NCBI GenBank assembly: GCA_027623295.1
Contig: JAQBXR010000013.1
Coordinates: 3,250-67,249 of the forward strand
Reading direction: 5' to 3'
Length of the DNA: 64,000 nucleotides
From: Planctomycetota bacterium
GTDB lineage: Bacteria > Planctomycetota > UBA1135
This document shows positions 12,921 through 15,448 of the stretch, piece after piece. The notes under the pieces are model-generated. The model was not told where the DNA came from. It ran no database searches and was given only the letters and a program-made list of their open reading frames with translations. Numbering within the stretch: position 1 is the stretch's first letter; every line of letters starts with the position of its first letter. The position numbers were made by a program, and so were the translations under genes.

Positions 12921-14495
12921 ATGTCGGTACAGCACGAACAAGAAGATTTCCTCGCCCTGCTTCACGAGCTTGAAGCACGGTGCAAAGTAGACCCCTCTCT
13001 CAATCAGGAGTGGGAAGATGCACGCGCTGATTTCCTCAGTAAGAGCGGAGAAAACGTTCACACCGAGAATCGTTTTCGCGAATGGTTTTTGCTGGAACGT
13101 GTCTCGCCAACCTTAGGTTCACCACCAGCCGTTTTATGGGCTCCGGATGCACCCGAAGTCGATTCCATTTGGCATCGACTTCTAGACTCCTTTTATGGAA
13201 TTTTTCAAGGCATCGGTAATGACGACGAGGGTTTCCCGTTGCTGGAAGATCTTTGGAGCGGGCGTCAAATCCGGTTGATTGGCAGTCGCATGAAGATTGA
13301 CGATACGGGAGTCATGGTGGGTCGTGTCGCTGTGGGTGGGGAGGAACACCATGTACCTTTTCCTGGAACCGCATTCTTGATTGCCCCAGGCCTTGCCGAT
13401 GCTTTAGCTAAAGACCTATCGAGCATTCGTGCAAAACAACCTCGTTCACGGCTCTCCCAGCAACAATGCGAAAATCTGCTGTTGCCTTACAGGGTTGCCC
13501 AAGAAGAGGAAAATCAGTCCACCGAAGATTTCCAACAACAGCTTCGTGAGTTATTGGAAGACCAAAACAAGTGGGACATTCCACAAGTCATTGCCTTACT
13601 CGAAAAAGAAGGGCCGCAAGAAACCCTGAACCAGATTGCCTTTGATTCCGATATTGATTTGGAAGCCCTACGGCATTGCATCCATGGCTTAACCGCGCAG
13701 GGGTCGGACAACCCGATCAGCAGCAAGACTCCGGAGGAAGACCAAGACTACTTAGATCCGAAAGATGTCCTAGAGGCCTTGGAAGCATTCGATACAGCTA
13801 TAGAAAATGGCACGGACCTGGTTCAATCCTTTTCCGCTCTAGAAGAAAAACTAGGGTTCGAAGCGGGAACCAGTGACCCATATCAAGAAGTTCTAAACGA
13901 GGGCACTAGTGCGGAACCAGTAGGCACACAAGAAGCACCCGGTAGCGCCATGTGGATGGCAACCTATCTTTGGGAGCAGGAACAAATGGGAGCGCATCCG
14001 GGCCGAGAATCCCTGGAGGAGATCACCCATTTCCTTGAGTTCTTGCGCAACATATTCGGCCGCAACCTGGAAGCCGATGAAGTGCATCAACACCAAATTC
14101 TGGCCTATTTTTGTCAGGCAGAAAGCTCGGAAATTTTGACCGAACAACTTAGCCACCTAGAACCATTCCTCGCATGGCTGATAGAAGAACAAGGCGCCCT
14201 GATTCAAATGGATCAACCATCTCGAGAACTTATCCATCGGGTGGTTTCTGTGAACCAACACTGGTCTGGATCTGATTCCATCACTGGAAGCATGGCCATG
14301 GTGCAAGAGACGGACCCTTTACAGGTAGGCACCGATAGTGGAGATGCAGCCATCGTGATGGGTTGGCCGGAAGGGTTTGATTTCCAACCTGGAATTGGTG
14401 ATGCCCTGCGTGGCCAGTGGCGGCACGGCAAGTTTCAGATTGGAGCTTGGTTCCCGAAGGCCTTGATGCCAGCGGCAATCCCGACGCCGAGCTAG
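12921..14495 (+). CDS. Hypothetical acidic protein, 524 aa, with a possible tyrosine-recombinase-like SAM/core-binding helical domain
   Basis: Long ORF with GAAGGA upstream. The segment TYLWEQE..EEITHFLEFL..EADEVHQHQILAYF..LSHLEPFLAWLIEEQG follows the helix pattern of XerC/D N-terminal domains. No catalytic R-K-H-R-H-Y domain. Confidence 0.7.
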   Translation: MSVQHEQEDFLALLHELEARCKVDPSLNQEWEDARADFLSKSGENVHTENRFREWFLLERVSPTLGSPPAVLWAPDAPEVDSIWHRLLDSFYGIFQGIGNDDEGFPLLEDLWSGRQIRLIGSRMKIDDTGVMVGRVAVGGEEHHVPFPGTAFLIAPGLADALAKDLSSIRAKQPRSRLSQQQCENLLLPYRVAQEEENQSTEDFQQQLRELLEDQNKWDIPQVIALLEKEGPQETLNQIAFDSDIDLEALRHCIHGLTAQGSDNPISSKTPEEDQDYLDPKDVLEALEAFDTAIENGTDLVQSFSALEEKLGFEAGTSDPYQEVLNEGTSAEPVGTQEAPGSAMWMATYLWEQEQMGAHPGRESLEEITHFLEFLRNIFGRNLEADEVHQHQILAYFCQAESSEILTEQLSHLEPFLAWLIEEQGALIQMDQPSRELIHRVVSVNQHWSGSDSITGSMAMVQETDPLQVGTDSGDAAIVMGWPEGFDFQPGIGDALRGQWRHGKFQIGAWFPKALMPAAIPTPS

Positions 14496-14553
14496 TAGGG
14501 CTAAAGATTCAGGAAAGACACGTTCCCTTGGCTTCTGTTTCGCCCTCAACGTA

Positions 14554-14581
14554 ACGTCCGATAATATATATTATGTTGCGA
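14554..14581 (+). other. dif-like XerCD recombination site
   Basis: ACGTCCGATAA-TATATA-TTATGTTGCGA: 11 bp arm, 6 bp spacer, 11 bp arm. Matches the ..ATAA-N6-TTATGTT.. core of E. coli dif (GGTGCGCATAA TGTATA TTATGTTAAAT). Intergenic, between convergent genes. Confidence 0.75.
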
Positions 14582-14636
14582 TAATCCTATGGCGGGGAGG
14601 CTGTATGACCTTGAAATCAAGCTTTTTGACCCCTCT

Positions 14637-14680
14637 TGGGGATACTCCTGTGGATAACTGTGTGGATAACCCTGGGATAA
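14637..14680 (-). promoter_or_regulatory. Tandem DnaA-box array
   Basis: Perfect TGTGGATAA (TTATCCACA on the minus strand) at 14649-14657 and 14661-14669. Degenerate copies TGGGGATAC at 14637-14645 and CTGGGATAA at 14672-14680. Spacing 12, 12, 11 bp. Confidence 0.75.
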
Positions 14681-14708
14681 ACCGGCTACCGAGTTCTCAC
14701 AACGCCTT

Positions 14709-15308
14709 CTAGGTGCGGCCCAAGAATAAAACCTTGGCCTCGCCCATCGCGTTGTATTCCACGCAACTCACTGACCCTGTAGGAATAACCAGATCATCCC
14801 AGGCCGGCAAATCCAAATGCATGGCGTCCGCCAAAACAGCTCTGATTGGAAACATATGCGATACCAGAGCAACCGCGCCATCGCCGGAATGCTCCTGAAC
14901 GATGTCAGTGAGACACGCCAAAACCCTAGTTCGCAAGTCACCTAAAGATTCGCCCTCATGGGCACGCCAATTCCAAGGATCCAGGCGATGCGATTCCCGG
15001 TCTGCTGGATATTGGGCATCTACCTCATTTGGGGTCTTACCAATCCAGCGTCCGCGGGCGATTTCCTTGAGGCCCTCGAGGCTTCTGATTTCCATGTCCA
15101 TGCGGCCAGCCCTCACCTGTTCGGCCCCAAATTGAGCTCGGCTCAAGGGACTTGCGTAAAGTGCCTGAAGAGGAATGGCTTGCAGTTGTACCGCTGCATT
15201 TTTAGCCTCTATACGGCCCTGCGGACTCAAATCCACCTCGGTGCCGCCATAAAAGGACCCATGCCGAGCTGGGCTGACCGCCCCATGTCGAATCAAAAAA
15301 AGACGCAT
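14709..15308 (-). CDS. Histidine phosphatase family protein (phosphoglycerate mutase/CobC-like)
   Basis: MRLFLIRHG, LYASPLSRA, LKEIARGRWIG, GES, LVSH. Start moved to ATG 15308. Confidence 0.9.
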   Translation of the reverse strand: MRLFLIRHGAVSPARHGSFYGGTEVDLSPQGRIEAKNAAVQLQAIPLQALYASPLSRAQFGAEQVRAGRMDMEIRSLEGLKEIARGRWIGKTPNEVDAQYPADRESHRLDPWNWRAHEGESLGDLRTRVLACLTDIVQEHSGDGAVALVSHMFPIRAVLADAMHLDLPAWDDLVIPTGSVSCVEYNAMGEAKVLFLGRT

Positions 15309-15448
15309 TGCTCTTAAATATACTCTCCAATCCGAGGAAATCAACCAAAAGTGTTCCTGGAAAGGAACCATATGGCTTTTTCAGCCGGGTTTCAGGTTGG
15401 TACAATCTTTGCAATAGTCCTTTGCCTCTAAACCCGAGGAAACTAATC

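Follow-up and report, generated by a model that had tools for sequence, protein, structure and literature searches.

The dif site of the Escherichia coli type, at which the XerCD/FtsK machinery resolves chromosome dimers, is a single-copy 28-bp sequence of 11-6-11 architecture found at the skew switch opposite the origin, and we know of no chromosomal dif that has a conserved protein-binding array alongside it. The accessory sequences of plasmid Xer sites lie on the XerC side of the core. Clusters of DnaA boxes outside oriC bind DnaA in Bacillus subtilis, where they are intergenic, mostly close to the origin and unlinked to dif. At plasmid Xer sites about 180 bp of adjacent accessory sequence is bound by host proteins and controls recombination (accessible text of PMC2699498), and FtsK needs, or acts on, the DNA next to the XerD site (accessible text of PMC2673442). 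As described in the accessible part of PMC5742627, boxes of the same orientation support head-to-tail oligomers of ATP-DnaA at oriC and at datA, datA, which is located near oriC, depends on an IHF site situated between boxes, and the core of DARS consists of three boxes, of which box I is opposite to boxes II and III. Here we analyse a 213-bp intergenic region in a 64,000-nucleotide stretch of DNA from a Planctomycetota bacterium (the window; C29:3250-67249 of a 34-contig, 2.45-Mb draft genome, G000, that is 88% complete), in which a dif site is followed by an array of DnaA boxes. The pairing joins two known kinds of element, a non-origin DnaA-box cluster and an Xer site with accessory sequences; what is new is that whole helical turns separate the two, and this suggests a so far undescribed link between the end and the start of replication.

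The intergenic region occupies positions 14496-14708 of the window and is flanked by convergent open reading frames (ORFs) at 12921-14495 (+) and 14709-15371 (-). A sequence-only reading of the window had reported in it a dif-like site, an IHF-like motif and four DnaA boxes, and we confirmed the coordinates and sequences of all of them on the window sequence. The boxes all lie on the + strand and are spaced by 12, 12 and 11 bp, and box 1 starts 55 bp past dif. The features of the locus are as follows.

12921-14495, + strand: upstream convergent ORF of 524 aa, a conserved neighbour of dif across the family, of no known protein family.
14554-14564, + strand: XerC-type arm of dif, ACGTCCGATAA, with 1.0-2.0 bits per column at 32 family loci.
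14565-14570, + strand: central region of dif, TATATA, variable among relatives (TGTATA, TATACA, TAAATA).
14571-14581, + strand: XerD-type arm of dif, TTATGTTGCGA, of which TTATGTTG is conserved across the order.
14582-14636: spacer between dif and the array, not conserved in sequence, its length held to helical-turn classes.
14615-14627, + strand: IHF-like motif AATCAAGCTTTTT, one mismatch to WATCAANNNNTTR, probably of no functional part.
14637-14645, + strand: DnaA box 1, weak, TGGGGATAC; relatives have TGTGGAAAG in this register.
14649-14657, + strand: DnaA box 2, perfect, TGTGGATAA, the complement of TTATCCACA.
14661-14669, + strand: DnaA box 3, perfect, TGTGGATAA.
14672-14680, + strand: DnaA box 4, degenerate, CTGGGATAA; conserved form yGGGAwAA, 11 bp after box 3.
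14709-15371, - strand: downstream convergent ORF of the histidine phosphatase family (Pfam His_Phos_1, E 6.4e-44), a neighbour of dif across the order.

The 28-mer at 14554-14581 is the XerCD/FtsK dimer-resolution site (dif) of the chromosome and lies at the replication terminus. Its two 11-bp arms flank a 6-bp centre and are in part dyad-symmetric; we call them XerC-type and XerD-type by resemblance to the E. coli site. Scored with a weight matrix for which other families of the order supplied 50 dif sites and the window's own family none, the site reached 40.8 bits, as against 12.7 bits for the next best in the genome, so that no better match exists elsewhere in it. The 24-mer core of dif (up to three mismatches allowed) had exactly one match per genome in 32 of the 49 family genomes, and a slightly degenerate motif was found in 89 of the 201 genomes of the order; the reversed-pattern controls gave none in either scan. 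By the weight matrix and the family motif scan, dif is thus present in one copy per chromosome, and the 'dif-like XerCD site' of the sequence-only reading proves to be a canonical and unique 11-6-11 site. The machinery that would use it is encoded in the genome. We found two Xer-family recombinases, whose best matches are XerC (318.8 bits) and XerD (270.6 bits), both just below the NCBIfam equivalog cut-offs (335 and 329.6, respectively), and an FtsK with the gamma domain. No FtsZ C-terminal domain was found in the 88%-complete genome, which does encode a PSD1 domain of the planctomycete type. The analysis supplies a dif consensus for an order, where prediction had failed in the one planctomycete genome of a 2011 survey, for which the accessible part of that survey reports no predicted dif (PMC3025954).

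One draft genome of the family, G051, has two dif-like loci, L055 (C112) without an array and L156 (C605) with an array and a MaoC gene, which suggests a mixed bin or a duplicated region. We also noted a TTTyGCCC motif, weakly conserved (two columns reach 0.8-0.9 bit), that precedes the XerC arm by 10-20 nt and lies at about 14538-14548 in the window and at the same offset in L039, L044, L060, L036 and L146-L148. It is possible that the motif is the terminator tail of the upstream gene. It is also possible that it is an extension of the dif site.

We place dif at the terminus from the polarity of the skew, from the direction of genes, from where dnaA lies and from three near-complete relatives. 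On the contig that holds the window, C29, the GC skew goes from weakly positive values on the left of dif to clearly negative ones on its right, and long ORFs run toward dif from the left. The skew drops across dif in all five genomes examined (G000, G004, G013, G017 and G018). The dnaA gene is split over two contig ends (C11:139082-139507 and C5:154989-156704; L001 and L018), with dnaN adjoining. When C11 and C5 are joined through dnaA, the 10-kb skew bins are negative in 6/6 cases and then positive in 6/6, an origin-type switch. The spacer between dnaA and dnaN (about 360 bp) contains the boxes TGTGGATAA, CTTTCCACA, GGTGGAAAG and TTCTCCACA together with an AT-rich stretch, and this intergenic region is likely oriC. 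In three near-complete chromosomes of the order (G151, G097 and G028, which belong to families without the array) the dif motif is located 50-55% of the way round from dnaA. The skew analysis and the localisation of dnaA and dnaN, both of which the sequence-only reading had proposed, thus give terminus polarity at dif and an origin-type switch at dnaA, and its remark that no dnaA, dnaN or rep gene adjoins the array holds, dnaA and dnaN being on other contigs.

One of these relatives, G097, carries on its contig C1 ten weak matches to the Bac_DnaA ATPase domain (25-29 bits). These are near-identical copies dispersed over the chromosome and are probably helper ATPases of a multicopy insertion sequence.

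The window contains two perfect DnaA boxes where 0.28 would be expected, a number reached by 3 of 100 shuffles, and these two, out of 11 perfect boxes in the 2.45-Mb genome, are 12 bp apart. The array is the only place in the genome where two boxes of the same orientation (at most one mismatch each) are spaced by 11-13 bp, and it is the strongest DnaA-box site of the genome by motif. The DnaA protein of the genome has a standard domain IV, the DNA-binding domain. Across the family the array consists of three 12-mers, TGTGGAnAAnnn, followed 11 bp on by the degenerate yGGGAwAA; the conserved repeat is TGTGGAnAAsyC, and nearly all copies agree with TTnTCCACA at eight of the nine box positions.

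We scored as an array two or more TGTGGAnAA boxes that had one mismatch at most, shared their orientation, were spaced by 11-13 or 23-25 bp and lay within 220 bp, after orienting all loci by dif (G052, with a flank of only 12 bp, was left out). On the XerD side and in the forward orientation an array was found at 32 of the 38 family dif loci, 58-145 bp beyond the XerD arm, as compared with 1/38 for the reverse orientation on the same side and 0/34 for either orientation on the XerC side. The array is kept in at least 15 genera. When the family genomes were scanned for the phased box pair wherever it occurs, about 45 of the 53 matches were the dif-adjacent array; the other eight include a second multi-box locus in genus g9 and coding coincidences such as a gyrB motif. 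Rarity, the criterion-based scan and conservation thus agree in pointing to a genuine array of same-orientation DnaA boxes beside dif, as the sequence-only reading had suggested, and the pairing of the two elements is conserved. A strict combined scan of the phylum (gap 58-88, no mismatch) returned G000 alone among 401 genomes; it missed three other sampled genomes of the family and is therefore little informative.

The second locus in g9 (L149-L152: G044:C138, G045:C219, G046:C60 and G047:C1) has 4-5 boxes, including a phased pair, in about 200 bp, and neither dnaA nor dnaN was found within the 2-3 kb examined around it. The gyrB-type coding motif EIVDNSVDE, as in L155 (G064:C33:188000-191200), gives two phased pseudo-boxes, TGTGGACAACTCTGTGGACGA, and is a recurrent false positive in scans for DnaA-box arrays.

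We compared conservation across the locus within the window's genus (9 genomes, 36 pairs). Mean pairwise identity was 0.91 for dif and 0.76 for the array; for the same pairs it was 0.49-0.50 in the spacer, 0.49 in the 45 bp after the array, 0.51 in the 45 bp before dif and 0.48 between random 45-mers. By this measure the array is under purifying selection, and dif and the array appear as two selected islands in an otherwise saturated intergenic region. The IHF-like site of the sequence-only reading is present at 14615-14627 but is not conserved, as only 4 of the 23 spacers of relatives contain the motif at one mismatch or fewer (shuffled mean 0.6, maximum 3).

Although the sequence of the spacer is free to change, its length is not. 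We measured the centre-to-centre distance from the central region of dif to the first strong box at the 32 array-bearing loci, to which the phasing test is confined. The distances fall into classes near 73, 84.5, 95, 105, 116, 127.5 and 138 bp. The Rayleigh periodogram anchored on the first box peaks at 10.7-10.8 bp, with R of 0.82 for all loci (n=32), 0.85 for 23 genus-level classes and 0.82 for 17 distinct values. Anchored on the last box it peaks at 10.7 bp, with R of 0.86, 0.84 and 0.80 (n = 32, 22-23 and 16-17, respectively). In all these cases, none of 5000 random uniform sets reached the observed R (maximum over periods of 9-13 bp). A period of 10.7 bp corresponds to the helical repeat of DNA; for looping systems in vivo it is about 11 bp. 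The distance classes do not arise from gain or loss of 12-bp boxes, because R at 12 bp was only 0.38-0.47, and we rejected a 12-bp box ladder as their source. Within the window's genus the distances to the last box were 96.5, 96.5, 97.5, 107.5, 107.5, 117.5, 117.5, 117.5 and 128.5 bp, giving R of 0.98 at 10.5 bp.

The spacer alignment contains no column above 0.7 bit in the 60 bp to the right of dif, and no element of fixed position that could act as the phased partner was found in it between dif and the array. For the same reason a conserved promoter at a fixed distance from dif was rejected as that partner. The phasing of the array to dif argues that proteins on both elements would act on one face of the helix. 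Indeed, the fixed side, the fixed orientation and the rotational register kept over 7-13 turns, across a spacer free of conserved sequence, are what would be expected of two protein-DNA complexes that must face each other. In three genomes of genus g17 (L146-L148) the XerD arm is altered to TTATGAATAG, and the array is kept at lattice distances; this variant is natural material for the study of arm specificity.

Set against the described systems, the site itself resembles dif of the E. coli type, being a 28-bp, single-copy 11-6-11 site at a skew switch opposite the origin in a genome with two Xer paralogues and an FtsK gamma domain, and departs from it in the conserved, putatively protein-binding array at its side and in a genome where, at 88% completeness, FtsZ was not found. 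The arrangement recalls the accessory sequences of the plasmid Xer sites cer, psi and mwr, where sites for ArgR, PepA and ArcA adjoin the XerCD core, in that predicted sites for a host protein adjoin the core here also and, as at cer and psi, in a defined geometry (fixed side, fixed orientation and a 10.7-10.8 bp lattice). Unlike cer and psi, the sites here are DnaA boxes, lie on the XerD side, are chromosomal, occur with an FtsK gamma domain and span 60-150 bp rather than about 180 bp. Unlike accessory sequences that are required, moreover, the array is not generally needed, as dif occurs without it in related families and at 6/38 family loci.

Among DnaA-binding loci, the array is like datA of E. 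coli in consisting of same-orientation boxes away from the origin and downstream of genes, suited to head-to-tail oligomers of ATP-DnaA (datA as described in the accessible part of PMC5742627). In contrast to datA, its boxes are contiguous in a 12-bp repeat that leaves no room for an IHF site (although the lineage's own IHF specificity may differ from the consensus used), and it is located at the terminus and phased to dif. It shares with DARS1 and DARS2 that it is a small non-origin DnaA-box cluster, but its boxes all have the same orientation, so that it does not have the arrangement of DARS. Strong boxes flanked by weaker ones, closely spaced and in one orientation, are also found in the oligomerisation region of oriC; the array, however, lies off the skew minimum, without an adjacent unwinding element and not next to dnaA or dnaN. 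In being intergenic and away from the origin, it is like the Bacillus subtilis clusters.

The reading that we favour, at slightly less than even confidence, is that dif and the array together form one composite element of the terminus and that DnaA, as a head-to-tail oligomer on the array, would communicate with XerCD/FtsK bound at dif. The three to four boxes with their 12-bp repeat would assemble an oligomer of the ATP-DnaA type, which would contact the dif proteins (XerC/XerD, or FtsK arriving on the XerD side) by looping out the 70-140 bp spacer. We suggest contact by looping because the side and the orientation of the array do not vary and its distance changes only by whole helical turns. 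In the direction that we prefer, DnaA would assist or regulate Xer recombination in the manner of ArgR, PepA and ArcA at plasmid Xer sites, and would make processing of the terminus sensitive to the status of the initiator. Nearly as likely is the reverse direction, in which the proteins bound at dif would modulate the DnaA complex at termination or division. Since dif occurs without the array in related lineages, the array would be an add-on regulator and not a requirement for Xer recombination. The binding of DnaA, the contact between dif and array and the direction of control are all inferred from these comparisons. A more specific version is possible, though we hold it with somewhat less confidence than the composite element as such: DnaA may be a physical partner of the XerCD/FtsK-dif machine, held on one helical face and looping onto dif from 7-13 turns off the XerD arm, dimer resolution or processing of the terminus and the state of the initiator would govern one another, and the whole may serve as a terminus checkpoint in bacteria without FtsZ.

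Several points weigh against a DnaA-dif complex. The array is absent from 6 of the 38 family dif loci, so dif works without it; these loci are mostly in small genomes in which the 3' end of the phosphatase gene has moved to 50-200 bp from dif. In other families of the order it is absent from all 44 dif loci scored (0/32 in f10, 0/6 in f7, 0/3 in f3, 0/1 in f5 and 0/2 in f9), and the forms seen in f8 and f2 are weaker, a single consensus box at +70 to +106 being accompanied by degenerate ones, and pass the strict array criterion at 1/3 and 0/3 loci, respectively. The genomes behind the phasing are kin, and collapsing them to genus classes or distinct values lessens their dependence only partly; box calling, furthermore, may move an anchor by 12 bp. 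A clean change of sign of the skew at dif is seen only in G000 and G004, whereas in G013, G017 and G018 the skew just drops. The comparative set consists of incomplete drafts (about 70-96% complete), and the evidence is comparative and motif-based. An array near the MaoC start at 13 loci, together with a sigma-70-like pattern in g9, fits an operator role. Finally, our literature search found no report of an interaction of DnaA with Xer or with FtsK. A full-text search, supplements excluded, found no description of DnaA boxes beside dif either (the supplements of the dif survey, PMC3025954, might list relevant sites), and the accessible part of a 2026 review (PMC13220808) contains no passage on a 'DnaA box cluster'.

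We ranked the alternatives in the order of a DnaA sink, an operator, another binding protein, a fork pause and an origin or replicon relic. The first, which we consider unlikely, is that the array is a datA-like sink for DnaA at the terminus that works independently of Xer. It would titrate ATP-DnaA or promote its hydrolysis, and a locus replicated last would double in copy number only at termination, thus delaying re-initiation. Closely spaced boxes in one orientation are found in the essential boxes of datA and in the oligomerisation regions of oriC, and the array of the window lies between convergent genes, much as the datA core lies downstream of genes (both as described in the accessible part of PMC5742627). 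As the strongest DnaA-box site of its genome by motif the array would suit such a role, selection on it persists where there is no downstream gene, and titration alone gives stable cycles in slow-growing E. coli (accessible text of PMC13674477). However, titration requires no fixed side, no fixed orientation and no helical phasing to dif; a sink of three or four boxes is small; there is no conserved counterpart of the IHF site on which datA depends; and datA itself is near oriC rather than the terminus (PMC5742627, accessible part). A DnaA-regulatory site at the terminus was one of three options offered by the sequence-only reading: its terminus location and its array hold, and it may be right, but titration alone does not predict phasing to dif.

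The second alternative makes the array an operator of a neighbouring gene. Gene order in the family is the 524-aa gene, dif, the array and, on the opposite strand, the phosphatase gene, which adjoins dif across the order. Homologues of the 524-aa ORF (27-76% identity) lie immediately to the left of dif in most family genomes, and not in the other families of the order; the ORF itself gave no Pfam match, no NCBIfam match and no PDB sequence match below E 0.1, and the leads from an Atlas search, to planctomycete hypothetical proteins, all stayed below 0.9. What stands between array and phosphatase gene varies: f10 and part of the family have a MaoC-type dehydratase gene, f2 has a family III CoA-transferase gene, f8 has other ORFs, and the window's genus has no gene there. 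This slot between dif and the phosphatase gene (L139-L145 and the family loci) is a hot spot of gene turnover, one version of it holding a secreted ORF and an aldehyde-dehydrogenase-like ORF.

In the operator reading the array would lie between a promoter to the right of dif and the first rightward gene, which DnaA would repress or time, and nearness to dif would be inherited synteny. In agreement with this, the array ends at or within the start codon region in 13/13 MaoC-bearing family loci, f2 has one consensus box about 25 nt upstream of the CoA-transferase ORF, and genus g9 has a sigma-70-like TTGnnn-17/18-TAGGAT between dif and the array. An operator role is plausible in the MaoC-bearing lineages. 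As the explanation of the array in general we regard it as improbable. Thirteen family loci have both the array and the MaoC gene, 19 have the array without MaoC and six have neither; a MaoC gene without the array occurs at no family locus, but does beside dif in f10. The 19 loci thus keep the array without that gene, the downstream gene changes between families, and genera differ in the frame that the array has with respect to the ORF. What the array faces in the window's genus is the 3' end of a convergent gene, and its identity there is nevertheless 0.76, as compared with 0.49 for the flanks. A scan of 14300-14900 in the window for promoters and terminators gave 0 sites of either type, there is no conserved element of fixed position to the right of dif, and phasing to dif is not predicted by an operator. 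We also rejected a coding reading of the array, as it is not in the same frame with the MaoC ORF in all genera and in-frame TAA codons occur within the boxes of one of them. The intergenic region gave only a chance miRNA match in Rfam (E 0.37) and no stable RNA fold (z-score -0.19).

We give little credence to a third possibility, that the 12-mer repeats bind a protein other than DnaA, such as a lineage-specific terminus protein, and that their likeness to DnaA boxes is partly coincidence. The 12-bp unit with its conserved C-rich tail does exceed the 9-mer box, and DnaA binding is predicted from motif matches, which counts against the composite element as well. On the other hand, the fit of eight of nine positions to the box consensus in almost every copy, the presence of the same box types between dnaA and dnaN and the standard DNA-binding domain of the genome's DnaA all speak against it.

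Still less probable, in our view, is a polar fork pause, in which a tight head-to-tail DnaA oligomer would slow one fork and so make dif the meeting point of the two, the lineage having neither Tus nor RTP. The constant orientation of the array on one side of dif would be in keeping with it, as would the finding that DnaB on its own does not get past a DnaA complex bound at oriC in vitro. However, SSB lets DnaB through (both from the accessible text of PMC11952115), the barrier would be one-sided, and helical phasing is left unexplained. The remaining two options of the sequence-only reading, an origin (main or back-up) beside dif and the relic of a replicon integrated there, have in their favour a DnaA-box cluster 55-70 bp from an AT-rich hexamer and can be dismissed with near certainty, as the skew polarity at dif is that of a terminus, other contigs have, at dnaA-dnaN, a clean origin-type switch together with boxes and an AT-rich stretch, three near-complete relatives have dif opposite dnaA, the spacer has 48% G+C and no unwinding element abuts the array, there is no rep gene, and the locus is syntenic across the family with selection confined to dif and the array between flanks at random-level identity.

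How the initiation machinery learns that a round of replication and segregation is over is an old open question, and the known DnaA-regulatory loci, datA and DARS, act through their map position, without a tie to termination. Even as a mere titration site or operator, the array would be a clean natural DnaA-box cluster at the terminus. If the composite element is real, it would be the first natural chromosomal dif with an accessory protein array, and the array is a concrete candidate for cross-talk in which the status of the initiator is tied to division or to the resolution of dimers, in bacteria that probably divide without FtsZ.

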